63,376 nucleotides of DNA from Acidobacteriota bacterium (GCA_039934255.1 JBDTML010000163.1:1-63376); one strand, 5' to 3'. Positions 423-61,584 are shown, counted from the first letter of the stretch. Notes: generated by a model from the sequence alone, not told the origin. Numbers and translations: made by a program.

Positions 423-2195
423 TCACGGGGCAGCGGGCAGCGTGAGGACGAACCGCGCGCCCGACAGTTCGGGCGACCGTTCGACCGTCACGGCGCCGCC
501 GTGGAGGAGCGCGATCTTGGCGACGAGCGCCAGGCCGAGCCCCGTCCCCGTGTCCTTCGTGGAATAGAACGGGACGAAGAGCTTGCCGGCGGCCTCCGCG
601 GACACTCCGGGGCCGTCGTCCTCGACCGCGATTCGCGCGAATCCTCCCGTCGCACCCTCGCCGCGGACGACGACGCGGCCCGCCCGGCCTCCCGCGGCGG
701 CGGCCTCGCACGCGTTTTTCACCAGGTTCACGAGCGCGCGGCGCACGAGCGCCGGGTCGGCAATCGCGGGCGCGAACGTCCCCGTCGCTTCCACGCGGAC
801 GCCCGGCGTCAACACGCGCTGCTCCTCGGCGATCTCGAACGCGAGGGCGCGGAGATCGCACGGGCCGGCCTCGAGCTGCTCCGGTCTCGCGAAGAAGAGA
901 AAATCACCGGTCACGCGTGCCACGTGCTCGGCCTCGGCCTGGATCGCGTCGAGCTGGCGCCCGCGCGCGACCGGGTCTCCCGTCTTCGCGGCAAGGCGCG
1001 CCCAGCCGAGAATCGTGCCGGTCGCGTTGCGGAACTCGTGGGCGATGCCCGCCGACATCTCGCCGAGCGCCGCGAGCTCGCGGCGGGACGAGAGCTCCCT
1101 CTCCAGACGCCGCGTGCTCGTGCGGTCCTCGAGAAACAGGAGGACGCCCAGGATGGATTTTCCGGAGTCGAGGATCGGCACGGCCGTCAGCTCGACGAGT
1201 CGCGCGTCCGCGCCCTTTCCGATCGTCAGCTCGAGGGAGAGCGTCGGCGAGCCCGTTCGCGCCGCCTCCACCGCCGCGCGGAGAGCGGGCACCTTTTCGA
1301 TGGCCGCCTCCGCTCCCGCGGCGAGGCTCCCTTCGCCCAGGCTCAAGAGGTCGCGGGCGGGCGCGTTCGCCCGCGTCAGGCGGCCCGCGGCATCCACGAC
1401 GACGAGCCCGCCGGGGTGTGAACGCACGAGCGTCTCGGCGGTCACAGCGAGATCGTCCGCGCGCCGCTGCTCGGAGCGGCGAAGCCCCTCCAGCTCGCCC
1501 GTGCGCTTCTTGAGCTCCTCGACCGTGCGCTGGAAGGTGGCGATCGCCGTCTCGGCTTCGTCCCCGCCGGCCCGCGCCGCCGGCACGAGGCCCCCCGCTC
1601 CCTTTGCGGTCTCCGTGAGGGCGTCGATCGGCTCGGCGAGCCGCCGGAGGAACGGCACCACGAGAAGGACGAGGACGCCCGCGGCCGCGGGGACCGCGAC
1701 AGAAAGGATGCGGGCGTTGCGGCGGGCCTCCACGCTCGGCGTTCCGTCCCAGGCGACCCTCAGGATTCGCGTCGCCCCCGGGAGAGCGATGGTGATCGAC
1801 GGAGTTCCGCCGTCGGCCCCCGCCACGACAGGGTCGGGGGCGGGCCGCTCGCCCGGCGGCAACGCGCCGGGCGCGAGCCCCGCGTCCGGGAGAAACGAAG
1901 CCTCTGCGAGGCGATCTCCTCGCGCGTCGTAGAGCGCCGCGCCCCGGGCGTTCAGCTCGCGGAGAAGACGCGTGACGGGCGCATCCGAGACGAACGCGAG
2001 CGCGGGATCCGGCGACCCACCGAGGCGATCCGCGACGGCGCGCGTCTCGGCGGTCAGGCGCCTGAGATTCTCGCCCCCGCCCCACGCCGCGGTGTTGCGC
2101 AGCACCACGACGGCCGTCCCGGCAAGGAAGAGCAGCGTCGCGAGACCGCCCACGATCACGATGCGCACCTCACGCTCGAACGCGCGTTCCGTCAC
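423..2195 (-). CDS. Membrane-bound PAS-type sensor histidine kinase (possibly PilS-like, given its position)
   Basis: C-terminal half of ORF 423..2651. It has the H-box AHEFRNATGTILGW, the N-box LVNLVKNACEA, and the G-boxes DDGPGV and GTGLGLALV. One N-terminal TM is present (IVIVGGLATLLFLAGTAVVVL). I place the start at GTG 2195-2193, which overlaps the pilD stop as GTGA. The upstream 152 aa of the tracked ORF are Arg-rich and overlap pilD in another frame. Confidence 0.85.
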   Translation of the reverse strand: MTERAFEREVRIVIVGGLATLLFLAGTAVVVLRNTAAWGGGENLRRLTAETRAVADRLGGSPDPALAFVSDAPVTRLLRELNARGAALYDARGDRLAEASFLPDAGLAPGALPPGERPAPDPVVAGADGGTPSITIALPGATRILRVAWDGTPSVEARRNARILSVAVPAAAGVLVLLVVPFLRRLAEPIDALTETAKGAGGLVPAARAGGDEAETAIATFQRTVEELKKRTGELEGLRRSEQRRADDLAVTAETLVRSHPGGLVVVDAAGRLTRANAPARDLLSLGEGSLAAGAEAAIEKVPALRAAVEAARTGSPTLSLELTIGKGADARLVELTAVPILDSGKSILGVLLFLEDRTSTRRLERELSSRRELAALGEMSAGIAHEFRNATGTILGWARLAAKTGDPVARGRQLDAIQAEAEHVARVTGDFLFFARPEQLEAGPCDLRALAFEIAEEQRVLTPGVRVEATGTFAPAIADPALVRRALVNLVKNACEAAAAGGRAGRVVVRGEGATGGFARIAVEDDGPGVSAEAAGKLFVPFYSTKDTGTGLGLALVAKIALLHGGAVTVERSPELSGARFVLTLPAAP

Positions 2196-3370
2196 GGCAG
2201 AAGCCTCGGAACCCAGGGCAGCCCGCCGGCGATCGCGTCCCACGCCGAGCGCCCCGCCACGAAAGCCACGAGCGCGCCACAGGCAAGAAAGACGCCGAAC
2301 GGCACGTCGACTCGCGCGAGAAGCACGAGGAGCCCGGCCGGCGTCGCCTCGGCGCGCGCCGCGAGAACCCGGAAGAAGTCGGCGCCGTCGTCGAGCGCGA
2401 GGCGCCCGTGCGCGGCGGGCTCTCCGCGGCGGGCCCGCGTCCCGGCGAGCCGGACGAATGCGAGGAGACGGCCGGCGGTCGGAACGTCCGCGGTCAGGCG
2501 CATTCCGTCCGCCGCGGCCCCCGGAATCTCGCGGAAACGCGGCGAAGCCGAAAGGACGCGGCCGTCGTCCGCGACGAGGAGCCCGGCGCGGGCCGCCACG
2601 GCGAGCGCGGCAGAGGACGACGCACGAGCGCGCCGCGCCTCGAGGGACCAACGCAGAGCGCGGATCAGCGTCGCGCCGCCCGCGACCACCGTGCCCGCGA
2701 GGGAGGCGAAGAAGAGCGTGAGGAACACGCCCGCGGGTCCCGTGAACGCGCCCGCCATCGCGAGCATCTTCACGTCACCTTCCCCCATGCCTTCCTGTCC
2801 GCGCAGCCTTTTGTACACCCGGCGCACCCCTTCGAGAAAGAGCGCGCCGGCGAGCGCGCCCGCGAACGCCTCGAAGAGGTGGCTCCCGGCGAAGAACCTC
2901 ACGAGGCCGTGGTCCGAGACCGCGGCAGCCCGGTCGCGGAGCGCCGCGAGGACGAGACCGAGCACGAGAGTCCCGAGCGTCACCTCGTCGGGCAGGGTGC
3001 GCGCCTCGAGGTCCGTCGCCGCGAGGATCACCGAGGCCGCCGCGAGAAAAGCGGCCGAGGCCGCGACGAACGTCGGCCCGTAAAGAAATCCGGCGCCGAG
3101 AAAGAGAAACGCCACGAGTAATTCGACGAGCACGTAGCGTACGGGGATGGGCGCGCCGCAGCGGCGGCAACGGCCGCGGAGGAGGAGCCAGGACAAGACG
3201 GGCACGTTGTCGAAGAACGCGATCGGCGCACCGCAGGAGGGGCAGCTGGAGCGCGGGCGGACGACGGAGAGCCCGCGTGGCAAGCGGTGGATGCACACGT
3301 TTGCGAAGGAGCCCACGATCGCGCCCGTCGCGAAGAAGAGGCCCAGGAGGACGCCCTCCATGGCATTCAT
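2192..3370 (-). CDS. pilD: Prepilin peptidase / N-methyltransferase (A24 family, PilD) with a roughly 115-aa insertion before the last TM
   Basis: Zn-finger pairs CPSCGAPI and CRRCGAPI are present. The first catalytic Asp region is ATDLEARTLPDEV and the second is GMGEGDVKMLAMAG. The terminal PFG helix is VPFGVFLACGALVAF. The product is 392 aa, versus about 250-290 aa for typical PilD. Confidence 0.9.
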   Translation of the reverse strand: MNAMEGVLLGLFFATGAIVGSFANVCIHRLPRGLSVVRPRSSCPSCGAPIAFFDNVPVLSWLLLRGRCRRCGAPIPVRYVLVELLVAFLFLGAGFLYGPTFVAASAAFLAAASVILAATDLEARTLPDEVTLGTLVLGLVLAALRDRAAAVSDHGLVRFFAGSHLFEAFAGALAGALFLEGVRRVYKRLRGQEGMGEGDVKMLAMAGAFTGPAGVFLTLFFASLAGTVVAGGATLIRALRWSLEARRARASSSAALAVAARAGLLVADDGRVLSASPRFREIPGAAADGMRLTADVPTAGRLLAFVRLAGTRARRGEPAAHGRLALDDGADFFRVLAARAEATPAGLLVLLARVDVPFGVFLACGALVAFVAGRSAWDAIAGGLPWVPRLLP

Positions 3371-5655
3371 GGGCGCCTCTCCCCCGCGAGAGCGAGGCCG
3401 GCGAGCACGACCAGCGACGCCAGCGAAACCGCCGCGCCGGCGCGAAACGCGAGCGGACGGTAGACGAGCTCGAGATGGTGGGGGCCCGCCGGCAGGAGAA
3501 CCGCGGAAAGCGCGAGATCCGCGCGGCGCAGCGGGACCTCCGTGCCATCGAGGCGGGCCTCCCAGCCGCGAGCGTACGCGCGCGTGAGGACGAGGAAACC
3601 CGCCTCCGAAGCCTCCGTGTCGACCGTCAGGCGCTCCGGCGCGTCCACCACGACACGCGCGACGGAGAAGCTCCTCCCCGCGCGCGCCGGCGGAAGCGGT
3701 CCCGCGGGTGGAGCGAGGAGCACGACGGCCTCGGGATCGAAGTCCCGCGCGGAAAGAGCGCGGAACGCGGCGGCGTCGTCCGCTTCCCGCGACGCGCGCG
3801 CGAAGAAGACGCGCCCCGCCGAACGCGAGAGGCGGTAAAGGAAGACGCCGGCTCCCTGCCGCTCGAGCCGGACCCCGGGAATCGTCGTCGGAAACGGCGA
3901 CACGACGTGCCGCACGTCCGCCAGCGAGAAAATCGTCTCAGGGTTTCCTCCCGAAAGCGCGGCCCCGAGGAGGCGCCTCATCCAGGGGTTCCCGATGGGC
4001 GAGGGCGACGCCGCTGAGGAGAGGCCGAGGGGAAGGTTCGTGTAGCCCGAGAGCAACGCCCGCGCCCGCGCCGCGGCCATGCCTCCCCACTCGCCGCCCG
4101 TTTCGCGCGCGAGAATTCCTCCGTCCGACACGACGGGAAAAAACCGGCCGGGCTCTCCGGCGAATGCCGCCATGCCCGGCGCCGGATCCGCGAGGTTCGC
4201 CGTCGAGAAGAGGCCGGCCGTCGCGCCCAGGAGGGGAATTATCACGAGCGCGCCCAGGGCGGCGCCCGACCACTCGGGGCCCGGCCGCCCGGACATACGG
4301 AAGGATGCAAGCAGGATCCCGCCGGCCGCCGCCGCAAGAAGCGTGGCCCAGGCCGCAGCTCCCGTCGCGCGGCCGGCGAAGAGTCCCAGGCCCAGAAGCG
4401 CGAGCGTGGTCGCCCCGAGAACGAAGAGGGGGGCGAGCCGGGACAGGGCGGGCGCCGACATCCGGTCGCCGTCTTCCGGTTCGCGACCCTTCGGCCACGC
4501 AAACAGCCTACCGTGTCGCCACCCATCGAGTCCCGCGCCGGCGAGACCCGCGAGCGCGAACTGCGTGAGAACGAACCATCGCGCAGGGAACCGGAGGCCC
4601 CTCGCGATGCCAAGGTCCCAGAGGATCGGGAGAAGTCCGCCTCGCGCCCCCAGTGCGAGGATGAGCCCAAGCAGCGCCAGGACGGCGAGCCCGAGAAGCA
4701 GCCGTGGCCGCGCGGCGAGCCCCGCGCCAGCTCCCGCCGCGAGAACAAAGACGAGCGGAGACAGCGCGAGGGTCGCGAGGTAGCCGCCGCGCCCCGGCGC
4801 CGCATGGCGCGTCGACGCGTCGGTCGGCGGCAGGACGAGATCGAGAAGATCCGACGCGCCGACGGGACGCGCAAGCGCTTCGGCGCGCGTGGCTCCGGCG
4901 AGCCGGCCCGAGGAGGCGGCGTACTCGAAGAAAGGAAACGCGACGGCGGCGGTGAGCGCGGCTCCGAGGAGCAACCCGCCCGCGAGCCGCGCGAGCGGCC
5001 GGCCCCTGTCGATCCCCCCGGCCGGCTCCTCGTGCCGCGTGAACAGCGCGAGGAGGACGGCAGACGTCGCCCCCACGACCGCGAGCGCGGGTTCCCCCGC
5101 GAGGAACGAAAGGGCGACCGCAACTGCGAGCCCCGCGGGGGAGCCGCCGATCGCAACGAGACGGGCCGCGGCGAAAAGCCAGGGGAGAAACGCCGCGGTT
5201 TCGAAGTTGTTGTACACGAGCGCGAGCGACAAGAACGCTCCGCTCCCCGCATAAGCCGCCGCTCCAAGAAGCGCCCCGCCGCGCGAGGTGCCGAGGCCGA
5301 AGAGCCAGGCCGCAACTCCGGACGCGGCGATCGCGAGATGGAGAGCGATGCCGAGAAGGGGCCCGAGGGAGCCGGGGAGCAGGAACGGGAGGTCCCCCGG
5401 GTAGAAGACGCCGGTCTGGAGCTGGGCGAGCCACGGCTCCCCGCACCCGGACAGCGGATTCCACAGGGGCAGGCCCGTCGCCCAACGGAAAGCCGTGTAC
5501 GACTTCATCGGCCAGAAGAAATCGGCTAGGTCACCGCGCGCGGGCACGCCCCCGGAGAGCAGGCTCGGAGCCAGGAACACCGCCGCGAACGCAAGCCCAA
5601 GGGCGCCACCGAGGAGCGCCGTCCGTCCCGTCGTTCCGCGACCTTGCACCTTCAC
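3367..5655 (-). CDS. YfhO-like polytopic membrane protein (putative GT-C glycosyltransferase), copy 1
   Basis: The motif DLADFFWPMKSYTAFRWATGLPLWNPLSGCGEPWLAQLQTGVFYPGDLPFLLP is typical of the YfhO family. There are many TM helices. The C-terminal module reads ..YARGWEARLDGTEVPLRRADLALSAVLLPAGPHHLELVYRP. I chose the start at GTG 5655 (or 5649) because the upstream part of ORF 3367..5976 overlaps the pilin gene and is Ser/Thr/Arg junk. The gene has an ATGA overlap with pilD. Confidence 0.75.
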   Translation of the reverse strand: MKVQGRGTTGRTALLGGALGLAFAAVFLAPSLLSGGVPARGDLADFFWPMKSYTAFRWATGLPLWNPLSGCGEPWLAQLQTGVFYPGDLPFLLPGSLGPLLGIALHLAIAASGVAAWLFGLGTSRGGALLGAAAYAGSGAFLSLALVYNNFETAAFLPWLFAAARLVAIGGSPAGLAVAVALSFLAGEPALAVVGATSAVLLALFTRHEEPAGGIDRGRPLARLAGGLLLGAALTAAVAFPFFEYAASSGRLAGATRAEALARPVGASDLLDLVLPPTDASTRHAAPGRGGYLATLALSPLVFVLAAGAGAGLAARPRLLLGLAVLALLGLILALGARGGLLPILWDLGIARGLRFPARWFVLTQFALAGLAGAGLDGWRHGRLFAWPKGREPEDGDRMSAPALSRLAPLFVLGATTLALLGLGLFAGRATGAAAWATLLAAAAGGILLASFRMSGRPGPEWSGAALGALVIIPLLGATAGLFSTANLADPAPGMAAFAGEPGRFFPVVSDGGILARETGGEWGGMAAARARALLSGYTNLPLGLSSAASPSPIGNPWMRRLLGAALSGGNPETIFSLADVRHVVSPFPTTIPGVRLERQGAGVFLYRLSRSAGRVFFARASREADDAAAFRALSARDFDPEAVVLLAPPAGPLPPARAGRSFSVARVVVDAPERLTVDTEASEAGFLVLTRAYARGWEARLDGTEVPLRRADLALSAVLLPAGPHHLELVYRPLAFRAGAAVSLASLVVLAGLALAGERRP

Positions 5656-5677
5656 GATTCTAGGCCCGGAAAAGAAA

Positions 5678-5699
5678 AGAGCCCCCGTGAGGGGGCTCT
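5678..5699 (-). terminator. Intrinsic terminator downstream of pilin gene 1
   Basis: On the minus strand the sequence reads AGAGCCCCC-UCAC-GGGGGCUCU followed by UUUCUUUUCC. This is a 9-bp GC stem, a 4-nt loop and a U-rich tail, 26 nt after the pilin stop. Confidence 0.8.
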
Positions 5700-5725
5700 C
5701 GGATCGGGTCGGAGCGGGAGGACGA

Positions 5726-6229
5726 TTACCGCTGCGAGCCCGCGGGGTACTGGAGGAACTGGCCGTCGACGAAGACGATGTCCTCGTTGAAGTCCGTGGT
5801 CTCTCCGCCGGCTTTCGAGGTGGAGATTCCGTCTTTGCCGTAAGACACCATGCCGTAGTTCTGGTTGTTGGCGTCGACGGAGTACGTGAAGTACGACTGC
5901 CAACCGTCCACGATGGGCAGGAGGCGGATGTAAGTCGGCGCGACCTGCTTGTTGAAGCCGGATCCTGCCGCGCCAAATGTCGTGCTGCCGAGGGTCAGGG
6001 TCGAGGGGAGCACGATTCCAGCCGCCGCCGGATAGTGGTTGAAGTCCACGGCGTACGCCTCGGCGGCCGTGCCCGCGGAGCGAACGTCGGCCATCGTCCT
6101 CTTCTGCTTGGCGCGCTGAATGGCGTTGAGCAGGTTGGGGATGGCGATCGCGACGATGATGCCGATGATCGCGACGACGATCAGAAGCTCGATCAACGTA
6201 AAGCCCTTGTTGTTGTTCCTCTTCTTCAT
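5726..6229 (-). CDS. Type IV pilin / GspG-like pseudopilin with a prepilin N-terminal cleavage-methylation motif
   Basis: The N-terminus is MKKRNNNKG/FTLIELLIVVAIIGIIVAIAIPNLLNAIQRAKQKRTMADVRS.., with the class III signal peptide motif G-FTLIEL. An AGGAGG Shine-Dalgarno sits 8 nt upstream of the ATG. Confidence 0.92.
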   Translation of the reverse strand: MKKRNNNKGFTLIELLIVVAIIGIIVAIAIPNLLNAIQRAKQKRTMADVRSAGTAAEAYAVDFNHYPAAAGIVLPSTLTLGSTTFGAAGSGFNKQVAPTYIRLLPIVDGWQSYFTYSVDANNQNYGMVSYGKDGISTSKAGGETTDFNEDIVFVDGQFLQYPAGSQR

Positions 6230-6259
6230 GAGATGAACCTCCTAATCCCTGATCTGCTT

Positions 6260-6275
6260 TCAAGACCCGTGCCGT
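6260..6275 (-). promoter_or_regulatory. Possible sigma54 (-24/-12) type promoter for pilin gene 1
   Basis: The minus strand reads cGGCACGGGTCTTGAAAGC. GG and TTG are spaced as in TGGCACG-N4-TTGC, but the -12 dinucleotide is GA rather than GC. It lies about 30-45 nt upstream of the ATG. Confidence 0.35.
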
Positions 6276-6402
6276 GGGCTTCCGACGCTGAATCAGGCTC
6301 GTTCGGGCAAAAATTAGGCCGCGAGCACGGCGCCGTTACGAATTTTTGTCGGGGGTAGCGGGGACCGCCGGACACCGTTTGTCGGTGCCACACCGGCCGC
6401 GA

Positions 6403-6888
6403 TCAATGCTGCGCGCCGTCCGGAAACTGAACGAACGTCCCGTCCACGAGGATGATGTCGGCGTTGAAATTCGTGGTCGCGCCGCCCAGGGGACTCGCCT
6501 CCGGGGCGCCGTCCGCTCCCGCCGAGCGAAGGGCGAAATCGCCCCTCGACGAGCTCCCCCCATAGAGGAAAAAAGAGTTCCACCCGTCCACGAGCGGCAC
6601 CATCCGGATGTAGGTCGGGCCCAGAGTGCCGGAAATGACACCGACCGTGCTGGTGGGCAGCGAAAGCCCCGAGGGCAGGGAGATCGCCGCCGCCGCCGGA
6701 TAGAAGTTATGGTCCGTGGCGTAGGCGTCGAGGGCGGTCGCAATCGTCTTCATGTCGCCCATCGAACGCTTCTGCTTCGCGCGCTGGATCGCATTGATCA
6801 TGTTCACGATCGCGATCGCGGCGATGAGGCCGATGATCGTCACGACGATCAGAAGCTCGATGAGCGTGAATCCCCGGCGTCTCGGCAT
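6403..6888 (-). CDS. Type IV pilin / GspG-like pseudopilin, tandem paralogue
   Basis: The N-terminus is MPRRRG/FTLIELLIVVTIIGLIAAIAIVNMINAIQRAKQKRSMGDMKT.., and the fold-level pattern matches pilin 1 (..YA.D.N.YPAAA..). I prefer the ATG at 6888 over the tracked start at 6924. The leader is then a normal length, and the 6924 codon falls inside the putative promoter. Confidence 0.88.
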   Translation of the reverse strand: MPRRRGFTLIELLIVVTIIGLIAAIAIVNMINAIQRAKQKRSMGDMKTIATALDAYATDHNFYPAAAAISLPSGLSLPTSTVGVISGTLGPTYIRMVPLVDGWNSFFLYGGSSSRGDFALRSAGADGAPEASPLGGATTNFNADIILVDGTFVQFPDGAQH

Positions 6889-6920
6889 GCTCCCTCGTAA
6901 CCCGAATCCCCCCGTGCTAC

Positions 6921-6936
6921 TCAAGAAACGTGCCTC
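6921..6936 (-). promoter_or_regulatory. Possible sigma54 (-24/-12) type promoter for pilin gene 2
   Basis: The minus strand reads aGGCACGTTTCTTGAGTAG. This is the same GGCACG-N4-TTGA architecture seen upstream of pilin 1. Confidence 0.35.
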
Positions 6937-6976
6937 GAATCGGGGCCCCGGGGCCCGCCTTTAGAATGGATCCAAC

Positions 6977-8512
6977 GTGATCCCCCGCCCACCGTTCGCT
7001 TCCGGTCTGACGCTCGAGCAGGAGCTGGCTGAATTCGAGATCCTGAAACCGCGCCTGGCCGAGGTCTGGGATTCGATTTCCGGGCGGGACGATCAGCCGC
7101 ACACCTCGGTCGTAGTGCCGTCGCTGACGCTCGACCAGGCGGAGATGAGGAAGCTCGACGGTGCGAGCTTCTACGAGGAAAGGCTTCTCTTCCTCCTCAT
7201 TCGGCTACGCAACCCGCGGGCGCGCGTCGTCTTCGTGACCTCGCAGCCCGTTCACCCCCTCGTCCTCGAGTATTACTTCCAACTCCTCGTCGGAATTCCT
7301 GCGAGTCACGCCCGCGGCCGGCTGACGCTGCTCTGCGCCCACGACGCCTCACCCCGCTCGCTCACGGAGAAGATCCTGGAGCGGCCGCGCCTCATCGAGC
7401 GCATCCGGCAGGGGATTCCCGACCGCTCGCGCGCGTACCTGACCGTCTTCAACTCGACGCCTCTCGAGCGCAAGCTCGCCGTTCTCCTCGGCGTGCCGCT
7501 GAACGGCGTCGACCCCGCCCTGAACGCGTACGGAACGAAATCCGGCAGCCGAAAGGTCTTCCGGGAGGCCGGTGTGTCCGTGCCCGCCGGTTTCGAGGAC
7601 CTGAGGGACGCTGCCGACATCGAGGGAGCTCTCGTGGCGCTCAAGGAGCGGAATCCCGCCCTCCGCCGGGCGGTGGTGAAGCTGAACGACAGCTTCTCCG
7701 GTGAAGGCAATGCGGTCCTTCGTTACCCGGATTCAGGGCGTCTCACGGAGGCCGTACACGCGGCACTTCCAAACGTGGAGTTCTCGGTCCCCTGGGAGAC
7801 CTGGGAGGAGTACCACGGCAAGTTTCAGCGGATGGGCGGCATCGTCGAGGAGTTCGTCGAGGCCCCCTGCAAGATGTCACCGAGCGTGCAGCTTCGAAGC
7901 GACCCGCACGGCAGCGTGATCCCGATCTCGACCCACGATCAGATCCTCGGTGGTCCGAGCGGACAGGTCTTCCTCGGCTGCCTGTTCCCGGCCGCGGACG
8001 ACTACCGGATGCTCATCCACGACGAAGCCCTGCGGATCGGCAGGGTTCTCGCCGCGAAGGGCGTCGTGAGCCGGTTCGCCGTCGACTTCCTCGTGACCCG
8101 CGAGGACGACGCCGCGCCCTGGAAGGCCTGGGCTCTCGAGATCAACCTCCGCATGGGAGGGACGACGCACCCTTACCTCGCGCTCCAGTTCCTGACGGGC
8201 GGGCAGCTCGACGGAGAGACGGGCCTCTTCCATTCGCCACGAGGCTCGCCGAAGTTCTACCGCGCGACGGACAACCTCCGCTCGGACACGTTCCGCGGCC
8301 TCCTTCCCGAGGATCTCATCGAGATCGTCACGATCAACTCCCTCCACTACAGCCACAACTCCGAGTCCGGGGTGCTGTTTCACCTCGTCGGCGCGCTCTC
8401 GGAATACGGCAAACTCGGAATGACGGCCATCGGGAACTCGCGCGAAGAGGTCGAGGCGATCTACGGCAAGACCCTCCGGATTCTCGACCACGAAGCCGGC
8501 ATGGGCCGGTGA
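6977..8512 (+). CDS. ATP-grasp family protein, PGM1-like peptide/carboxylate-amine ligase type
   Basis: GTG start. The N-terminal pre-ATP-grasp pattern is present (..SVVVPSLTLDQAEMRKLDGASFYEERLLFLLIRLRNPRARVVFVTSQPV..), followed by an ATP-grasp core (..GTKSGSRKVFREAGVSVPAG...VVKLNDSFSGEGN...FAVDFLV...WKAWALEINLRMGGTTHP). Confidence 0.65.
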   Translation: MIPRPPFASGLTLEQELAEFEILKPRLAEVWDSISGRDDQPHTSVVVPSLTLDQAEMRKLDGASFYEERLLFLLIRLRNPRARVVFVTSQPVHPLVLEYYFQLLVGIPASHARGRLTLLCAHDASPRSLTEKILERPRLIERIRQGIPDRSRAYLTVFNSTPLERKLAVLLGVPLNGVDPALNAYGTKSGSRKVFREAGVSVPAGFEDLRDAADIEGALVALKERNPALRRAVVKLNDSFSGEGNAVLRYPDSGRLTEAVHAALPNVEFSVPWETWEEYHGKFQRMGGIVEEFVEAPCKMSPSVQLRSDPHGSVIPISTHDQILGGPSGQVFLGCLFPAADDYRMLIHDEALRIGRVLAAKGVVSRFAVDFLVTREDDAAPWKAWALEINLRMGGTTHPYLALQFLTGGQLDGETGLFHSPRGSPKFYRATDNLRSDTFRGLLPEDLIEIVTINSLHYSHNSESGVLFHLVGALSEYGKLGMTAIGNSREEVEAIYGKTLRILDHEAGMGR

Positions 8513-52619: not shown

Positions 52620-54050
52620 TCAGGGCGCGGTCGCGAACTCGAGGAGAACCCGCCTCGTCCGCCCGATCCCATCGATGAAAAGTGGAAGCGAAATGCGTTC
52701 GTTCGGGTGATGGATCGTCGCCGCATCGTAGATGTTCACGGCGAAGGGGGACACGCCGTAAACGCGGAGGCCGCGGGCGCGAATGGCGGCCGCCGACGTG
52801 GCCTGCCCGCTCAGGATATAGGGCCCGACGGGTGCCTTCTCCGGGTCCAGACCGTAAACGTTCTCGATTGCGCGCCAGGCGTTCCCCTCGGTGGGGCTCG
52901 ATACGGAGTCACGGGTCTCGAAAAAGCGGCGGAGGCCGAAGCCCCGGCTCCGAACCCAGCTCTCGAGCTCGGCGCGCGCGGACGCGACCGGGCTTCCCGG
53001 CAGCAGCGTTCTGACGACGCGCATGGAAAAGCCGTCGGATTCCTTTTCGACCCTGCCCGTATAGATGCTGTCCTTGAGAAGTGAACGGTAGACTTCCGGA
53101 ACGTCCTTCCAGAGCTCCGCCTCCGGAACGAGCTTCTCGGCTCCATCCATCATGTAGCGGCCCCAGACATCCGATCGCGAGGGCGCGATGAACCGCAGGA
53201 ACTCCCTCACGGCGGGGACTACGCGGACGGGTTGCTGCTGATCCCGGGCCTTCAGGAATTCGCGGAAATCCTCGAGCGGCTTCGCGGCAGACGACAGGGC
53301 GGCCACGGAGAGAACCGCCTTCTCCATCGTCTCGATGCCGAAGCGCTCGACCTGCTGGGTCTTGACCTCGTTGACTCCTCCCTCGTTGAAGACGTCCGTC
53401 ACGCCCGCGAGGAGGTCCGGCCGGTTGTCGAAGAGCCAGCCCATGCCGAGGTCTTCGCGAAATGTCTCTTCTCCGGACTCGACGACGAAGACGATGTCGC
53501 GGAGCGGCACGAGGCCCGCGCGCGTGAGCGAAACCACGGCGAGGAGGTTTGCGATCGTCTGCCCCTTCATGTCGAGCGTCCCGCGCCCGTAGAGGCGATC
53601 GCGCTCGAGCCCGGCGCCTCGCGCGGCCGCGAACGGCGGACTGACCCACGCGCCGAGATCCCCCGCGGGCACCACGTCCGCATGGTTGAGAAGGGCGAGC
53701 GCGCCCTCCTGGCTTCGGCCCTTGATGCGTGCGACGAGGATCGGGCGCTCCGGATCGGCGCCGGTGATCGCCGACGGAATCCCATCGCACGCGAGAACCC
53801 GGGCGAGAAAGTCGATCGCGGGGCGGGTGATTCCGGGCGGATTCGTCGTGTCGATGCGCACGTATTCCACGAGGAGCTTCACGGCCTCGGTCTCCATGGC
53901 CGCGTCCGCCTCGACGTACACCTGGCGAATCGCGATGGGCGCCGCGAGCCGCGACACAATCGCCGGAACAGCCCAGAGAGCGAGCACGGCGAAAGCGGCA
54001 GCGCCCCCGTACAAGGCGAGGCGCCGCTTCGCGCGAGGCCCCAGCGTCAT
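52620..54050 (-). CDS. M20 family metallopeptidase/deacylase with an N-terminal TM anchor
   Basis: The sequence reads ..LLNHADVVPAGDLGAWVSPPFAA...LYGRGTLDMKGQ...FVVESGEE.. The ATG at 54050 overlaps the upstream stop as ATGA. Confidence 0.85.
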   Translation of the reverse strand: MTLGPRAKRRLALYGGAAAFAVLALWAVPAIVSRLAAPIAIRQVYVEADAAMETEAVKLLVEYVRIDTTNPPGITRPAIDFLARVLACDGIPSAITGADPERPILVARIKGRSQEGALALLNHADVVPAGDLGAWVSPPFAAARGAGLERDRLYGRGTLDMKGQTIANLLAVVSLTRAGLVPLRDIVFVVESGEETFREDLGMGWLFDNRPDLLAGVTDVFNEGGVNEVKTQQVERFGIETMEKAVLSVAALSSAAKPLEDFREFLKARDQQQPVRVVPAVREFLRFIAPSRSDVWGRYMMDGAEKLVPEAELWKDVPEVYRSLLKDSIYTGRVEKESDGFSMRVVRTLLPGSPVASARAELESWVRSRGFGLRRFFETRDSVSSPTEGNAWRAIENVYGLDPEKAPVGPYILSGQATSAAAIRARGLRVYGVSPFAVNIYDAATIHHPNERISLPLFIDGIGRTRRVLLEFATAP

Positions 54051-56170
54051 GTTTTTCCAAACGCGGAGGGGCGCAGCGAAACGAGCAGGCTGACGGCGAG
54101 CGCCAGCGCGGTGACCACGGAAATCATGAACCCGATCTTCACCCACCGCGTGTCCGGCCGCAAACGCAGGTGATGACGTCCTTCCGGAACCGCCAGGCCC
54201 GCGAACCCGAACGCGACGCGCGAGACGCGGGCAGGGCTGCCGTCGAGCGTGGCCTCTTCCGCGGCATCCCACAACCGGTACAGCATGAGAAAGCCCGGGC
54301 CCGGCCCCGCAACCTCGACGTCGAGAAAGAGCCCGGAAGGCCGATCGTCGACGGCCAGGATGCGGCCAGCCGCCGGAGCGGGAGAAACTCCCGGGACCGC
54401 TTCGTCGACGTACGCGGTGTCGACGCCGAAGCCGTCCTCGAGAAGTCGCCCGAAGACGGCGCGAGCGTCGGGGGAGGCCGCGAGCTTCGCCGCGAACCGG
54501 TAAGGCGGAACCGGGTCGCGAATCGGCTCGAGACGCGGCCGGTAGCGCCCGTCCTCTTCTCGCTCGCTCCGGACGATCGCCGAGACGCCCGTGCCACGCA
54601 CGATGCGGATGGCGAGCGCCGGCGTTTCCCGGACGGCGCGATTGAGGAGGCGCGTCCACTCGAACGTTTCCGCCGGAAGCGACAGGTCGTAGTCAACCTC
54701 GAATTGATAGGCGACGCCGAAGAGCGACCCGTAGGCCGGGAGCAGCGATTCCCGACCGACGCGGCCCGAGGCCCTGAGGTCGCGCGAGTCGTACACCGGA
54801 ACGGGGGCGTAGAGGTCCCGGAAGAAGAGGCGCGGCGGTGGGGCGGCGCCTGGGGGCGCGGGAAATCCGGCCAGAAGCGTGGGAGCGCGCGTGATGACCG
54901 ACGCATCCTCGAGAGGCATGAGGCGCCGCGCGATTCCCTCCCGATCGATGAAGATCGCGAAAGCGAGGAGTGGCAAGGCGATGCGAAGAGCCCGGGGCGA
55001 CAGGGCGCCCGCGAGGCTCGACAGCCCCAGCGCGGCGAGCCAGGCGAGCCCGAATCCGAGGAGAACCATGTACTTCTCCGGGTACCGGATCCAGCCGAGA
55101 GGCGGCAGCAGCCGCGCGGCGAGCCCGAAGACCGGCGTGGCGCCGCCGAGGGCGAGGAGGAAGCCTGTGGCCGCGAGGAGCACAGCCGCGACCCGTCCCG
55201 GCCCTTTCCGGACGAGTCCGACGACGACGAGAATCCACGCGACTCGCCCCGGCGTCACGGAGGGAAGGTAGGGATAGTCCGGAATTCCGGGAGCCGACGC
55301 GACGACCGCCCAGTCCGCGACCAGCCCGTCCGTGAAGAGGTCTTTGAGGCGCGACAGCACGAATGGGTTCAACGCGGCGGCAGCCGGGCCCATGCCTCCT
55401 CCCGGCGACCGGATACTGCGTGCGGCTGTGGCCGCCCCCGGCAGGATCGCGATCGCGCCGAGCCCGGCGGCGAGAAACGCGCTCGCCACGAGGAGAGCCA
55501 GCGGACGCGCCTCCTGTCGCCACGTCCCGCCTTCACCGCGTGCCGCGAAGAGAACCGCGACGGCGACACACAACGCGAAAATCACGAATTCGGGCGCCGT
55601 CGCGAGAAGAATAAGGGCCGCCGCGATTCCCACCTTCGCCACCTTCGCCACCTCCGCTACCTCGCGCGTACGCGACGCTTTCACGAGGTCGTAGACGAAT
55701 GCGGCAAACCACGGAAGGATCGAGAGCGCGGACATCGTGGGCGGAAACGTGGCGACGGACACCGCCGCCGCGCCGAGCGCGAAGGCGAGTCCCGCGAGGG
55801 CCGCCGGCCCGCGCAAAAGGCCGAGGCGCCTTCCGAAAGCGGCGAATCCGGCGACGGCCACTCCGAGATGCAGAACGATCCACGCCTTCATCGCGGCCCC
55901 GAGGGGCAGCACGAGGAAGAGGATGTTCGCGGGGTCGAACGGCGCCGCCGAGGGAGCGCCGAGAAGCGGCGCCCCTCCCCATCGAAAGCGATCCACCCAG
56001 GGCAGTTCTCCACGAAGGACCGCTTCGACGAGATGAGCCTTCAGCGGAAAGAAATAAAACAGGAGGTCCCGCCCCACCGGAACGCCGGATCCGAAAAGCC
56101 CGCGAAACGGCAGGAGCACGAGAAGGATCGCCCCGACGAGAGGAAGCGATTCGCGCAGACGTGCCTTCAC
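54047..56170 (-). CDS. YfhO-like polytopic membrane protein (putative GT-C glycosyltransferase), copy 2
   Basis: The sequence reads VPVGRDLLFYFFPLKAHLVEAVLRGELPWVDRFRWGGAPLLGAPSAAPFDPANILFLVLP. It has many TMs and a C-terminal module ..VSRVAFGFAGLAVPEGRHHLRLRP.. GTG at 56170 overlaps the upstream stop as GTGA. Confidence 0.72.
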   Translation of the reverse strand: MKARLRESLPLVGAILLVLLPFRGLFGSGVPVGRDLLFYFFPLKAHLVEAVLRGELPWVDRFRWGGAPLLGAPSAAPFDPANILFLVLPLGAAMKAWIVLHLGVAVAGFAAFGRRLGLLRGPAALAGLAFALGAAAVSVATFPPTMSALSILPWFAAFVYDLVKASRTREVAEVAKVAKVGIAAALILLATAPEFVIFALCVAVAVLFAARGEGGTWRQEARPLALLVASAFLAAGLGAIAILPGAATAARSIRSPGGGMGPAAAALNPFVLSRLKDLFTDGLVADWAVVASAPGIPDYPYLPSVTPGRVAWILVVVGLVRKGPGRVAAVLLAATGFLLALGGATPVFGLAARLLPPLGWIRYPEKYMVLLGFGLAWLAALGLSSLAGALSPRALRIALPLLAFAIFIDREGIARRLMPLEDASVITRAPTLLAGFPAPPGAAPPPRLFFRDLYAPVPVYDSRDLRASGRVGRESLLPAYGSLFGVAYQFEVDYDLSLPAETFEWTRLLNRAVRETPALAIRIVRGTGVSAIVRSEREEDGRYRPRLEPIRDPVPPYRFAAKLAASPDARAVFGRLLEDGFGVDTAYVDEAVPGVSPAPAAGRILAVDDRPSGLFLDVEVAGPGPGFLMLYRLWDAAEEATLDGSPARVSRVAFGFAGLAVPEGRHHLRLRPDTRWVKIGFMISVVTALALAVSLLVSLRPSAFGKT

Positions 56171-58398
56171 GGGCGCGCCCCTCGCCGGGCGACAAGAGCG
56201 ACGGCCAGAAGCGACGCGACGGAGAGCGCCCCCCCGGCGAAGAAGGCGGGGTTCTCGTATGCGAGCGCGATCTCGTGGTCTCCGCCCGGAACGTCCACGG
56301 CCATCATGTATCCGTCCGAGGGGCGGATCGCGAGATCCGCCCCGTCCACCCGAGCATGCCAGTTCGGGTCGAACGTCCGCGCGACGAAAAGCACCGCCAC
56401 AGGAAGGCCCACCCGTACCCGGAGGCGGGCCCGGCCCGGCCGGCTCTCCTCCACCGAAACCGTCCCGCCGCCCGCCGGGAGAAAGCAGAACTCCGCGCGC
56501 GCGCCTTCGACGCGCAGGATCCGGTCCTCTCCGAAGCGGCCGATCTCGACGACTCCGGGCGGATCGGGCGGCACCGCCGCCGTCCTCACGAGAGTCACGC
56601 CGAGAGTGCGCAGGCGCGCGACCTTTTCCGCTCCCCATTGGAGTCCCGCGAGTGCGCGGGCGAAGCGCGCCGAGGGAGCTGCCGTCATGCGGTCCACGTC
56701 GTTCTCCCCGGCGTATCGGATCCCGAAGGCGACACCCGCCGCGGGGAGCAGCGGGTCGAATCCGCCGGCCTCGCGCGTCCGGCGCGCGACCGTCGACGCG
56801 GCGCCGGCGCCGTCGTCGTAGAAGCGCCCGGCCCCGATCCGCGCGCGCACGAGCGCGACCTCGGGTGTCTCGCGGCGGTAAAGATCCGGCGGCCCCGCGG
56901 GGCACGTCCCCGCCACGCGCCGCGCCGCGTCGGCCAGAAACAACACGGCAATGATGCTGGCGAGAAGCATCGTGTCACGGCGCTTTTCTTTGAAGGTGAA
57001 GAGGGAGAACGCGACCGCGCACAGGAGAAGGGTCGCGGTGGCCATGAGAAGCGGCGCTCGAAGGACTCCCGCGACGGCGGCACCAGAGGTATCGCCCACA
57101 CCAAGCCCCATCGCCCATATTCCCTTTCTCAGCAAATCTTCCGCGCCGACCGCCAAAGCGAGGAGCGCGCCGCAAACGAGAGCGAGCCCGGTCGCTCCCC
57201 TCCGAAGCAAATCGACGGCTTTTCTTCTCGTCTCCCCCACCTCATCGGAAAACACAGCATCGACGCCGACCGCCGCCGCCCCCGCGAGCGCGAACGTCAC
57301 GAGGAGCCACCATTTCTCCGGATAGCGAAGGACTGAAACGGCCGCCGCGAGGAACGAGGCCCCGGGCAGGAACCGCCCGAACGAGAGCACGGCTCCGCCG
57401 AGCGCGAGAAGAAGCGCGGCTCGTCCCCGCCTGTCGCGCCACGCGGCCGCGGCGAAAAGGAGCGGAACAAGCCCGAGCGCGAGATCCTCGAAGTAGGGGC
57501 TGCCCGCGTCGAACGTGCCCCTGCCCCAATCGAGGGACGTGTCGCCTTGGGGATCGCCCGTGAGCCGCGGTTCGAGAAGCGTGAGGACGCGCGACGGCCT
57601 CACGGACCGGAAGAGGGCTCCGTGTTCGGGCCGCATCTCGATACCCCGCGCGGAGCGGGAAAGCTCGAGGACCGCCGGACAGATCTGGACCGCCGCAAGA
57701 CCCGCGCCGAGACCCAGCGCGAGAAGCGCGCCGGCAATGGCGCGCCCGCGCGCCTGCCCCGCGCCGAACGCCGCAACCGCGAAGAATGCCGCCGCGCCCA
57801 TCAGCGTCACGGCCGGTTCGCCGCCGAGCGCCGCGAGGCCGACGGCGAGCGCCGCGACGGCGCGGGCGCGACCGCGGGCAGCCGCGTCTCCCGAGGCGAG
57901 GCGGGGCGCCTCGGCGAGCGCGAAGGCAAGCGGCAGGACGGCCGCGCACGTCGTCGCGTAGACCGGAAGCGACTGTGCGACGCCCGAAAAGAGGAGAACG
58001 AGCGTCCCCGCGGCACAGGCCTGAGGCGAGAGGCCGATGCGCCGCAGGGAAAAAAAGAAGACCGCGAGGACGAGAAAGATGGCGACGAAAGCGAGAGCCG
58101 TCGGCGAGAGAACGAGGAGGAGCGGCGAGAGCGGCCAGAACGCGGCGGCATTCGGGTCCGCGGCGAAGGGTCTTCCCGCGGACATCCACTCGTTCCAGAC
58201 GGGCATCTCGCCCGCCCCGAAGAGCCGCCCGAGGGCGAGCCTCCAGGGGACGAAGAAGAAGCCCGCGTCGCGCCGATACAGCGTGCCGCCGACCAGGAAA
58301 GGAGCAAACCGGATCGCGGCGGCAGTGAGAACGGCGGCGAGCGCCCATGCAGTGAAACGGGCGCGGAGGCGAGGGGACTCCTCCGGTGCGCGCGTCAC
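56167..58398 (-). CDS. YfhO-like polytopic membrane protein (putative GT-C glycosyltransferase), copy 3
   Basis: The sequence reads GGTLYRRDAGFFFVPWRLALGRLFGAGEMPVWNEWMSAGRPFAADPNAAAFWPLSPLLLVL. It has many TMs and a C-terminal module ..FDPNWHARVDGADLAIRPSDGYMMAVDVPGGDHEIALAYENP. GTG at 58398 lies 5 nt after the upstream stop. Confidence 0.72.
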   Translation of the reverse strand: MTRAPEESPRLRARFTAWALAAVLTAAAIRFAPFLVGGTLYRRDAGFFFVPWRLALGRLFGAGEMPVWNEWMSAGRPFAADPNAAAFWPLSPLLLVLSPTALAFVAIFLVLAVFFFSLRRIGLSPQACAAGTLVLLFSGVAQSLPVYATTCAAVLPLAFALAEAPRLASGDAAARGRARAVAALAVGLAALGGEPAVTLMGAAAFFAVAAFGAGQARGRAIAGALLALGLGAGLAAVQICPAVLELSRSARGIEMRPEHGALFRSVRPSRVLTLLEPRLTGDPQGDTSLDWGRGTFDAGSPYFEDLALGLVPLLFAAAAWRDRRGRAALLLALGGAVLSFGRFLPGASFLAAAVSVLRYPEKWWLLVTFALAGAAAVGVDAVFSDEVGETRRKAVDLLRRGATGLALVCGALLALAVGAEDLLRKGIWAMGLGVGDTSGAAVAGVLRAPLLMATATLLLCAVAFSLFTFKEKRRDTMLLASIIAVLFLADAARRVAGTCPAGPPDLYRRETPEVALVRARIGAGRFYDDGAGAASTVARRTREAGGFDPLLPAAGVAFGIRYAGENDVDRMTAAPSARFARALAGLQWGAEKVARLRTLGVTLVRTAAVPPDPPGVVEIGRFGEDRILRVEGARAEFCFLPAGGGTVSVEESRPGRARLRVRVGLPVAVLFVARTFDPNWHARVDGADLAIRPSDGYMMAVDVPGGDHEIALAYENPAFFAGGALSVASLLAVALVARRGARP
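56981..57145. repeat. AT-rich repeat pair (arms 56981-57010 and 57115-57145) inside YfhO-like copy 3
   Basis: 56982-57004 (gcttttctttgaaggtgaagagg) is 21/23 identical to 29426-29448. 57123-57138 (cctttctcagcaaatc) matches the reverse complement of 41811-41826. A weaker third piece lies at about 57200-57240 (ccgaagcaaatcgacggcttttcttctcgtctccc). Confidence 0.6.
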
Positions 58399-58403
58399 GT
58401 GCC

Positions 58404-59807
58404 TCAGGGCTTCCGCGCGAGAACCAGAAGCGACATCCCGAACGACGGCTCCGTCTTCTCCTCCGCCCGGAGGAGGGGCATCAGCCACTTGAAGGCGCCG
58501 AGCTGCCTCTTCGGCAGGACGCGGCGCTTCAAAAGGCGGGAATTGACCCACCAGCCGAGGACGCCGGGCCGATTCAGGTATCGGACGGATTCCACGGCGA
58601 AGCCCGCGCGCGCGACGAGCGTCGCGAGGGCGCCCTTTTCGTAGCGACGGTAGTGGCGGAGATTCTCGTCGAGCGTGCCGTAAAGCGCCGGCAGGGCGGG
58701 CACGAGAAGCGCGAGGTGCCCTCCGGGTTGTAGAACGCGCAGGAAGTCGGCGAGCGTTCCGGCGTCGTCCTCGATGTGCTCGAGCACGTTCAGGCAGACG
58801 ATCGAGTCGATGCGCTCGCGGCCGAGGTCGGCGCGATCTCCCTCCGTGAGCGGAAACCGGAACGAGGCGACGCGCACGTTGCCCTGCTTCTCGAACCGGT
58901 TGAGGAGCTCGCGCACGTAGTGCGGTTCGATGTCCGACGCGACGACGCGCTCGCGGTCCGCGAAAAACCGCGTCTGGTTGCCCACGCCCGATCCGACCTC
59001 GAGAACGCGCGACCCGAGCCACGCCTCGAACCGCTCGTGAATCCAGCGGTTGTAGACCGACAGCTCGCTCATACGGCGGAGCGTGATCGCGCCCACGTCG
59101 CTTTCGGGCGCTTCCCACCGGAAGTACTTGAGGATCGTCCAGACCGCCTGAAACGCGTCCTTGAGGCCGATCTTCTTGCCTTCCTCGTAGGTCCGCCCGT
59201 TGTACGAGATGGGGACTTCGTAGATCCGGACGCGCATGCGCGCCACCTTGCACGTGATCTCGGGCTCGACGCCGAACCGCTGCGACCTGAGATCCAGCCG
59301 GTCCACGACTCCGCGGGTCATGACCTTGTAGCAGGTCTCCATGTCCGACAGGTTCAGGTCCGTGAACACGTTCGACATGAGCGTGAGGAGGCGGTTGCCG
59401 ACCGTGTGCCAGAAGTAGAGGACACGGTGCCCGTGCGGACTGCCCAGAAAGCGGGATCCGTACACGACCTCGGCCTTGCCCGCGAGGATGGGGCCGAGAA
59501 GAACCGGATATTCCTCGGGGTCGTACTCGAGATCGGCGTCCTGGATCACGACGAGGTCGCCCGTGGAGGCGCGCATGCCGGCCCACACGGCGGCGCCCTT
59601 CCCCATGTTGCGCGTCTGGAGGATCACGCGCACGCCGTTCTTGCCGTCGAGCTCACGGAGAATGTCGCGGGTTCCGTCCGTCGAGCCGTCGTCGACGATC
59701 ACGATCTCGCGTTCGAGATCCCCGAGGTCCACCGCCAGAACCTGCGCGAGAATCTCGCGGATCGTCTGGCGCTCGTTGTACGCCGGCATCACGATCGACA
59801 ACTTCAT
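58404..59807 (-). CDS. Fusion of a GT2 polyprenyl-phosphate-sugar-synthase-like glycosyltransferase and a class I SAM-dependent methyltransferase
   Basis: The GT2 part reads LSIVMPAYNE...VIVDDGSTDGT...GKGAAV...VIQDADLEYDP (DxD)...SDMETCYK. The methyltransferase part reads VLEVGSGVGNQT...CLNVLEHIED...LQPGGHLALLVP. ATGA overlap with the upstream gene. Confidence 0.88.
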   Translation of the reverse strand: MKLSIVMPAYNERQTIREILAQVLAVDLGDLEREIVIVDDGSTDGTRDILRELDGKNGVRVILQTRNMGKGAAVWAGMRASTGDLVVIQDADLEYDPEEYPVLLGPILAGKAEVVYGSRFLGSPHGHRVLYFWHTVGNRLLTLMSNVFTDLNLSDMETCYKVMTRGVVDRLDLRSQRFGVEPEITCKVARMRVRIYEVPISYNGRTYEEGKKIGLKDAFQAVWTILKYFRWEAPESDVGAITLRRMSELSVYNRWIHERFEAWLGSRVLEVGSGVGNQTRFFADRERVVASDIEPHYVRELLNRFEKQGNVRVASFRFPLTEGDRADLGRERIDSIVCLNVLEHIEDDAGTLADFLRVLQPGGHLALLVPALPALYGTLDENLRHYRRYEKGALATLVARAGFAVESVRYLNRPGVLGWWVNSRLLKRRVLPKRQLGAFKWLMPLLRAEEKTEPSFGMSLLVLARKP

Positions 59808-61534: not shown

Positions 61535-61584
61535 CGGGGGGATTGTAGGGGGAGTGACTCCTCGCCCCTGTTACGCTCGCGCCC

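Follow-up and report, generated by a model that had tools for sequence, protein, structure and literature searches.

Conserved gene order in Thermoanaerobaculia suggests that a YfhO-family membrane protein adds sugar to type IV pili

Pilin glycosylation has effects on how pili bundle and adhere, on resistance to phages and on recognition by the immune system. To our knowledge, just two types of enzyme, TfpO/PglL and TfpW, are established as acting on the type IV pilins of bacteria. TfpO/PilO and PglL belong to the Wzy_C (O-antigen-ligase-like) family and transfer a preassembled oligosaccharide en bloc from undecaprenyl diphosphate. As for the second type, Kus et al. in 2008 reportedly identified TfpW of Pa5196/PA7 as a pilin D-arabinofuranosyltransferase. 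TfpW is an arabinofuranosyltransferase of the glycosyltransferase C (GT-C) type, encoded after pilA in Pseudomonas aeruginosa strains of group IV and in some other Proteobacteria (bioRxiv 10.1101/2020.04.19.049825). Here, we analyze a gene for a GT-C membrane protein of another family, YfhO, which is located between tandem type IV pilin genes and the prepilin peptidase gene pilD on a contig of 63 kb (JBDTML010000163.1 of GCA_039934255.1, G+C ~70%) from an Acidobacteriota bacterium of the class Thermoanaerobaculia that is uncultured and of soil type. The whole stretch of 63,376 nucleotides is referred to below as the window. Its placement in the class is taken from the record titles of near-identical loci, and the genome to which it belongs is 82% complete.

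Several YfhO-type proteins have been characterized in other bacteria. PgfM1 of S. mutans and PgtC2 of S. pyogenes/S. pneumoniae O-glycosylate Ser/Thr-rich protein segments from undecaprenyl-phosphate (Und-P) sugars (bioRxiv 10.1101/2024.05.05.592596), and these Und-P sugars are made by their glycosyltransferase family 2 (GT2) partners, PgfS/GtrB (PMC5856776; bioRxiv 10.1101/2024.05.05.592596). YfhO/CsbB of B. subtilis and GtlA/GtlB of Listeria are involved in the glycosylation of lipoteichoic or wall teichoic acid (PMC5836110). The literature searched, with incomplete coverage of journals, yielded neither a YfhO-type enzyme tied to type IV pilins nor a case of pilin glycosylation in Acidobacteria. 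The window had previously been proposed, from the sequence by itself, to contain a new pairing of a YfhO-type enzyme with pilins (the original prediction). This novelty stands as far as YfhO-type enzymes and type IV pilins are concerned; a GT-C gene beside pilA (TfpW) and protein O-glycosylation by YfhO-type enzymes (PgfM1, PgtC2) are each known already.

The locus is transcribed from the minus strand in the order prepilin A, prepilin B, a strong terminator, the YfhO-family GT-C gene, pilD and a sensor kinase gene (Table 1). Both junctions downstream of the GT-C gene were read directly: its stop overlaps the pilD start by ATGA (CGC CCA TGA / ATG AAT), and the pilD stop overlaps the kinase start by GTGA (CTG CCG TGA / GTG ACG). 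The original prediction had listed the tandem paralogous prepilins, the YfhO-like gene and the two overlaps, all of which were found at or near the positions it gave; its span of 3367-6924 takes in the pilins and the YfhO-like gene, with pilD and the kinase gene just outside. The gene order, kept across the class, suggests an enzyme that adds sugar to type IV pili. We favor, with a probability of about 0.55, the interpretation that the 762-residue protein is a periplasmic pilin O-glycosyltransferase of the YfhO type, which uses a polyprenyl-phosphate sugar and is co-translated with PilD. Within this interpretation, we infer that pilin is the acceptor, and likewise the residues modified, the sugar and the lipid carrier.

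Conservation of the linkage within the order was assessed in 80 loci obtained by scanning one genome per species (31–94% identity), all but one of which are labelled Acidobacteriota, Thermoanaerobaculia or Holophagales. Within the genus of the window (24 genomes), the orthologue (60–94% identity) lies between the pilins and pilD wherever the contig permits a view. The gene is likewise placed between pilins and pilD in a second family of the order, at 35–39% identity. Among loci with enough sequence, 67 of 68 have pilD immediately 3' of the GT-C gene; a pilin gene is found no more than 400 nt 5' of it in 57 of 69 loci, and some pilin gene no more than 6 kb 5' in 63 of 69. The position of the kinase gene is also kept in related loci. 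Linkage to the major pilin gene across relatives, as known for TfpW and TfpO, is therefore found here as well, except in one subclade where an rRNA operon stands at this place. An adjacency confined to this genome, which the original prediction had named as grounds for giving up the idea, and an adjacency due to pure chance were both rejected: the order is kept across the genus and the order, and it recurs in rearranged form in other Acidobacteriota families.

Two groups of loci deserve separate description. The rRNA operon, with the arrangement 16S-tRNA-tRNA-23S-5S, is seen in loci L063, L071, L074 and L077 (630-5811), and its 5S gene ends ~100–200 nt before the GT-C gene. The single locus with a discordant label, L059 (JBLMYG010000036.1), is a 3.6-kb contig labelled Acidithiobacillales; its YfhO-like-pilD-kinase unit is nested within the Thermoanaerobaculia clade, and the contig is probably misbinned.

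To follow the linkage beyond the order, 301 Acidobacteriota genomes were searched with an orthologue profile, which gave a match in 55, and ~7 kb on each side was fetched for the 20 top-scoring matches from outside the order. Of these 20 homologues, 13 have a pilin of the same family within 7 kb, and three more pilin-linked cases emerged when coordinates were compared with those of a pilin-profile search. The arrangements are diverse: a pilin directly upstream, divergent pilins, a pilin followed by an M20 peptidase gene and then the GT-C gene (with an ATGA overlap), or the GT-C gene followed by one to three pilins. A pilin is encoded in every one of the 17 genomes whose full-length hits reach 150 bits or more (16 with the pilin family at threshold, the 17th with a divergent pilin beside the gene), against a background of 145 of the 301 sampled genomes for the pilin family. 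In a maximum-likelihood tree, the genes found between pilin and pilD form one clade of 69 sequences with a Shimodaira-Hasegawa-like approximate likelihood ratio test (SH-aLRT) value of 98. The genes of family f5, which follow a pilin and an M20 peptidase gene, are sister to this clade, and other pilin-linked genes lie on several deeper branches. The proximity to pilins persists through repeated rearrangement in more than 10 families, and its retention argues for selection on the linkage. In family f5, which belongs to the same class as the window, the gene between the pilin and the YfhO-like gene encodes an M20/M28-type peptidase, and its stop overlaps the YfhO-like start (L147:5797-7203; L159:~5650-6978). 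The pairing of M20 and YfhO genes is recurrent, as the M20 gene of the window also follows YfhO paralogues.

The YfhO-like reading frame begins with GTG at 5655, which gives 762 residues, and a GTG two codons further on is an equally possible start. The protein matches Pfam YfhO (PF09586) at 36.5 bits (cut-off 28.5), over residues 676–744 alone. The same family is matched by 17 of 17 aligned orthologues; a class-level homologue additionally matches profile positions 83–446, and the precomputed Pfam annotation carries PF09586 on nearly all of the 120 relatives listed. An AlphaFold2 (AF2) model, based on the alignment of the 17 orthologues (33–83% identity), has a mean predicted local distance difference test (pLDDT) score of 72 and a predicted template modelling (pTM) score of 0.75. 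It consists of ~13 transmembrane (TM) helices up to residue 482, a β-rich domain (residues ~483–733) and a final TM helix (735–759). The YfhO family is characterized by just this topology of ~13 TM helices, a big extracytoplasmic domain and a last TM helix, and it has been published for YfhO of B. subtilis (PMC5836110).

When the model was compared with the PDB using Foldseek, the sole matches at E≤0.001 were AftD (6wby, 6w98, 6wbx) and ArnT (5ezm, 5f15), all with a probability of 1.00. These are the top five matches, with modest TM-scores of 0.35–0.45, while EmbC, Pmt4, AftB and ALG3 rank lower and are mixed with unrelated membrane proteins. The modelled membrane core is thus like that of solved GT-C enzymes. 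A sequence search of the PDB with the orthologue profile gave no match at E≤1, so that the tie to solved GT-C enzymes is through fold comparison only. Orthology to PgfM2/PgfM1 (NCBIfam NF047590/NF047589) was rejected, as the scores of 27.7 and 20.8 bits, both over the C-terminus, compare with equivalog cut-offs of 1500 and 1400.

GT-C enzymes hold their catalytic acid in the first extracytoplasmic loop. In the 762-residue protein, a DxD/DxxD-like acidic motif of this kind is formed by D42 and D45 in the loop after TM1, which is predicted to be periplasmic because the N-terminus is positively charged. Both residues are invariant in the 17 orthologues, as part of an N-terminal block (D42-x-x-D45-F-F-x-P-x-K-x-Y-T ... 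L-W-N-P-x-S-G-x-G-E-P-W) that is invariant throughout the same alignment. D42 is present in 103 of 103 full-length homologues, including distant paralogues with identities down to ~25–30%. For P49, W65, G72, R251 and R355, conservation reaches 95% or more in the orthogroup and 97% or more in the distant set. Based on the strict conservation of the loop-1 aspartate and of the arginines, we take the protein to be an active enzyme of the YfhO family; it is presumably catalytically competent, with a polyprenyl-phosphate-linked sugar as its presumed donor. The assignment to GT-C in the original prediction is borne out by the AF2 model, the fold match and the invariant loop-1 aspartate.

Prepilins A and B both carry the G/FTLIELLIVV motif, both match Pfam N_methyl together with T2SSG, and are ~53% identical to each other. 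The listed reading frame of prepilin A extends to 6924 from a TTG codon; its product matches Pfam N_methyl (37.9 bits) and T2SSG (37 bits), and related loci contain orthologues. Apart from these two pilins, no GspG-like major-pilin-type gene is found in this 82% complete genome. We considered whether the two are GspG proteins of a type II secretion system (TIGR01710) and rejected this assignment, as they score 74.5 and 73.6 bits against an equivalog cut-off of 88.85 and no gsp operon is found. They stand with pilD, near a pilT fragment, and not inside a gsp cluster. The most fitting description of their products is that of type IV pilins with a GspG-like head. A sequence-profile comparison places PulG/GspG, M. 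xanthus PilA, Geobacter PilA-N and Thermus PilA4 nearest among solved structures.

In the AF2 model of pilin B (pLDDT 85.7), a long N-terminal helix of the customary kind (residues 3–53) is followed by an extended αβ-loop (54–105) and then a β-sheet. In an alignment of 120 pilins, Ser or Thr is found in 66–88% of the sequences at columns 64, 67, 70, 73, 75 and 88, and in 100% at column 90. All of these columns fall inside the modelled αβ-loop, the rich part corresponding to mature residues ~64–90. In Thermus PilA4/PilA5 and in Neisseria pilin, serines of the αβ-loop region carry O-linked glycans (PMC7203116). By this analogy, the pilin is a plausible acceptor. In addition, six open frames of 460–893 aa that end in a pilin (loci L181-L186, other Acidobacteriota) were considered as GT-C-pilin fusions and rejected, as no YfhO-like or other Pfam domain is found upstream of the pilin; they are probably spurious open frames in high-GC DNA.

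The strong intrinsic terminator that the original prediction had placed between the pilin and YfhO-like genes is real and conserved. Its hairpin, 5700-5677(-), has 10 pairs, of which 7 are G-C, and is followed by TTCTTTTCC; the calculated stability is -20.4 kcal/mol (RNAfold). It is the top site of a terminator scan that found 12 sites, compared to 4.9 ± 2.3 in shuffled sequences. In nearly every locus of the clade to which the window belongs, the last pilin gene is followed by a hairpin of -17 to -28 kcal/mol, and the stems differ in sequence among loci yet stay mutually complementary. Family f2 has its strong terminator after the first pilin gene, and the final one reads into the GT-C gene without a terminator; one pilin and the GT-C gene are probably co-transcribed there.

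Both pilin genes of the window have the pattern GGCACG-N4-TTGA at a fixed distance on their 5' side. Of 120 pilin genes from related loci, 63 have it at this place, compared with a background rate of 0.014 per 230 nt. All 63 of these pilin genes belong to the window's own family-level clade, and the f2 pilins are without the pattern. As judged from the sequence, the elements resemble a sigma54 -24/-12 promoter, and the NtrB/AtoS-like kinase encoded in the unit would suit control of the sigma54 type. The resulting picture, that pilin transcripts may be abundant and those of the GT-C-PilD-kinase unit less so, matches what the original prediction had suggested.

A possible sequence of events can be outlined as follows. 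Both pilin genes would be transcribed strongly from their own sigma54-type promoters, with most transcription ending at the terminator after pilin B. A transcript of lower level, arising by read-through or from a weak internal start, would span the translationally coupled genes for the GT-C enzyme, PilD and the sensor kinase. The prepilins would enter the inner membrane, where PilD, acting on the cytoplasmic side, would cleave and methylate them. On the periplasmic side, the GT-C enzyme would transfer the sugar from a polyprenyl-phosphate-sugar by means of the invariant Asp42 of the first periplasmic loop, the donor having been made by a DPMS (dolichol-phosphate mannose synthase)/GtrB-like GT2, such as that at 58404-59807. 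The sugar would be placed on Ser/Thr residues of the exposed αβ-loop of the pilin prior to filament assembly.

Several observations weigh against pilin as the acceptor. Within the order, the closest-linked partner of the GT-C gene is pilD, not pilin (67/68 compared to 57/69), and a terminator splits the pilin from the GT-C gene. In the subclade mentioned above, a complete rRNA operon replaces the pilins 5' of the YfhO-like-pilD-kinase unit, and the same genomes have a block of ATP-grasp, pilin A and pilin B genes elsewhere, with no YfhO-like gene alongside; this break, which lies exactly at the terminator, fits two transcription units. The pilin operon itself contains no GT2 or flippase gene. 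The genomes carry at least five YfhO-like paralogues in addition to PMT-like and AglB-like GT-Cs, so that the adjacency to pilins could partly reflect a general glycosylation island, and many of the window's own GT-C paralogues lie in a general glycosylation cluster. Teichoic acids, not proteins, are the targets of the YfhO proteins characterized in Bacillus and Listeria (PMC5836110). These points would be explained if the GT-C enzyme modified another envelope molecule, such as exopolysaccharide, lipopolysaccharide or lipid, peptidoglycan, or another PilD substrate or periplasmic protein. Its gene would then be part of the pilD-kinase unit because pilus function requires its product or is regulated together with it, comparable to the action of YfhO/CsbB on teichoic acid. 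The near-invariant pilD neighbor and the rRNA subclade are compatible with such a general envelope role co-regulated with pilD, and the pilD-centered linkage within the order, together with the teichoic-acid precedents, keeps this explanation alive. We nevertheless regard this main rival as less likely than pilin glycosylation. Outside the order, homologues without an adjacent pilD are still found beside pilins in varied arrangements, which is hard to explain without some role tied to pilins. Strong homologues are confined to genomes with the pilin family or, once, with a divergent pilin beside the gene, and in family f2 a pilin gene and the GT-C gene share one orientation and lack an intervening terminator.

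Pilin glycosylation also presupposes an active enzyme. The protein could instead have kept a GT-C fold while serving as a structural or chaperone-like accessory of pilin biogenesis, such as a membrane platform on which prepilins are handled together with PilD. Such a role would agree with the translational coupling to pilD, with a Pfam match limited to the C-terminal 70 residues, and with the low model confidence at the putative active-site loop (pLDDT<50 for residues 42–46), which likewise weakens the case for an enzyme. It is quite improbable, as D42, the loop-1 residues and two arginines are strictly conserved in 103 homologues, as expected for a working GT-C site, and no precedent for a catalytically dead YfhO was found. 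Finally, the adjacency might have no functional meaning and reflect inherited synteny in one lineage of metagenome-assembled genomes, or a crowded genome. All loci are from one phylum and share ancestry, so that the counts given above are not independent; contigs of such assemblies may also be chimeric, and one locus is labelled Acidithiobacillales. The linkage, however, outlasts changes of orientation, insertion of an M20 gene, and presence or absence of pilD, in more than 10 families and at identities down to ~27%. The chance of a pilin within 7 kb is below ~1% per genome, against the 13 of 20 seen, and the 4-nt overlaps point to a single translation unit. An adjacency devoid of meaning is thus very improbable.

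A candidate for the maker of the lipid-linked sugar donor, proposed from its sequence, is the GT2 encoded at 58404-59807. Its best relatives in the PDB are dolichol-phosphate mannose synthase (5MLZ, E = 2.5e-23), ArnC and GtrB (sll0501). Enzymes of this kind supply GT-C enzymes with polyprenyl-phosphate monosaccharides. The gene is part of a cluster (52620-63375), ~47 kb from the pilin operon, that comprises the M20 peptidase, two YfhO-like paralogues, the GT2-methyltransferase, a PMT/ArnT-like GT-C and an AglB/STT3-like protein. The AglB/STT3-like oligosaccharyltransferase gene is divergent from the rest of the cluster and runs off the contig. In families f2 and f5, parts of this cluster (YfhO paralogue, M20, GT2) directly abut pilin genes.

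Two neighbors of the GT-C gene show features of their own. PilD has a predicted soluble insert of ~115 residues (~240–355) ahead of its last helix. The PilD proteins of family f2 align only to residues ~16–237 of the window's PilD, and the insert is therefore specific to the window's clade. The ATP-grasp ligase gene, which is divergent from the pilin genes, remains beside the pilins even where these are split from the GT-C-pilD block (loci L177-L179), and it is missing from family f2 loci. A pilin-linked role for the ligase is conceivable.

Table 1. Features of the pilin locus and of the GT-C-rich cluster, in coordinates of the window.
Feature	Position	Strand	Basis
Sensor histidine kinase, NtrB/AtoS-like; two TM helices, PAS, HisKA, HATPase	423..2195	-	Pfam and NCBIfam
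Prepilin peptidase PilD, 392 aa	2192..3370	-	Pfam A24_N_bact 114.8 bits, Peptidase_A24 66.2 bits
YfhO-family GT-C membrane glycosyltransferase (predicted), 762 aa	3367..5655	-	Pfam YfhO, AF2, Foldseek
Intrinsic terminator between pilin B and GT-C gene, GAGAGCCCCC-TCAC-GGGGGCTCTT then T-run	5667..5700	-	Terminator scan, RNAfold
Prepilin B, 167 aa, paralogue of A; pilin immediately 5' of GT-C gene	5726..6229	-	Pfam and AF2 model
Sigma54-type -24/-12-like element, CGGCACG-N4-TTGA, 5' of pilin B	6260..6274	-	Read from sequence
Prepilin A, 161 aa from ATG, GspG-like head domain; mature start FTLIELLIVV	6403..6888	-	Pfam N_methyl and T2SSG
Sigma54-type -24/-12-like element, AGGCACG-N4-TTGA, 5' of pilin A	6921..6935	-	Read from sequence
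ATP-grasp ligase, PGM1/BesA-like, divergent from pilin genes	6977..8512	+	Pfam ATP-grasp_IQCH, PGM1_C; NCBIfam BesA 168 bits, under cut-off
M20 peptidase gene downstream of YfhO-like paralogues	52620-54659		Context
Two tandem YfhO-like paralogues, ~54047-56170 and 56167-58400	54047..58400	-	Context
GT2 of polyprenyl-phosphate sugar synthase type, fused to methyltransferase domain	58404..59807	-	Pfam Glycos_transf_2 118.5 bits

Conserved gene linkage can propose an acceptor for an uncharacterized GT-C enzyme. More tentatively than the assignment of the single protein, we propose that YfhO-type GT-C enzymes may form a third class of dedicated type IV pilin glycosyltransferases, beside TfpO/PglL and TfpW, that is ancient in Acidobacteriota; in Thermoanaerobaculia, the enzyme would be made in one translation unit with the prepilin peptidase, and cleavage, methylation and glycosylation would be joined in a single inner-membrane module. 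If true, protein O-glycosylation by the YfhO family would reach beyond Firmicutes into diderm soil bacteria, there would be a first functional handle on the many YfhO-like paralogues that Acidobacteriota possess, and glycosyltransferase and peptidase would constitute a compact unit of pilin maturation.

Among known systems, the Bacillus and Listeria pairs YfhO/CsbB and GtlA/GtlB share family and topology with the 762-residue protein, and follow the logic of a GT2 synthase, a flippase and a GT-C enzyme. They differ in their teichoic-acid acceptors and in having no linkage to pilin or pilD. We know of no teichoic acid in Acidobacteriota. TfpO resembles the present case in being an accessory gene directly after pilA and in the periplasmic glycosylation of pilin, whereas its protein family is different from that of the window's GT-C; the Pfam scan of the locus found no Wzy_C match. 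The closest family relatives with a protein acceptor are PgfM1 and PgtC2, which belong to the same Pfam family, YfhO, and carry out extracytoplasmic transfer of a monosaccharide onto Ser/Thr-rich segments of membrane-associated proteins. The window, too, contains a GT2 that is DPMS/GtrB-like. Unlike in these systems, the host here is a diderm, the putative acceptor is a pilin loop and not a disordered tail, and the GT2 gene is outside the operon.

In gene organization and proposed role, the closest analogue is TfpW. Both proteins are polytopic membrane enzymes of the GT-C type whose genes are located directly 3' of the major pilin gene, and TfpW uses a polyprenyl-phosphate sugar to modify Ser/Thr of the pilin. 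TfpW differs in its DDx motif, its Emb-like proline motif (YX6PFX7P) and its C-terminal tetratricopeptide repeat (TPR) domain, and it is not coupled to pilD. The window protein is set apart from this description by its match to Pfam YfhO, the D-x-x-D-F-F motif, the β-rich periplasmic domain with a final TM helix, and the coupling to pilD. The modelled C-terminal domain, which appears to be β-rich rather than a helical TPR domain, argues against membership in the TfpW family.

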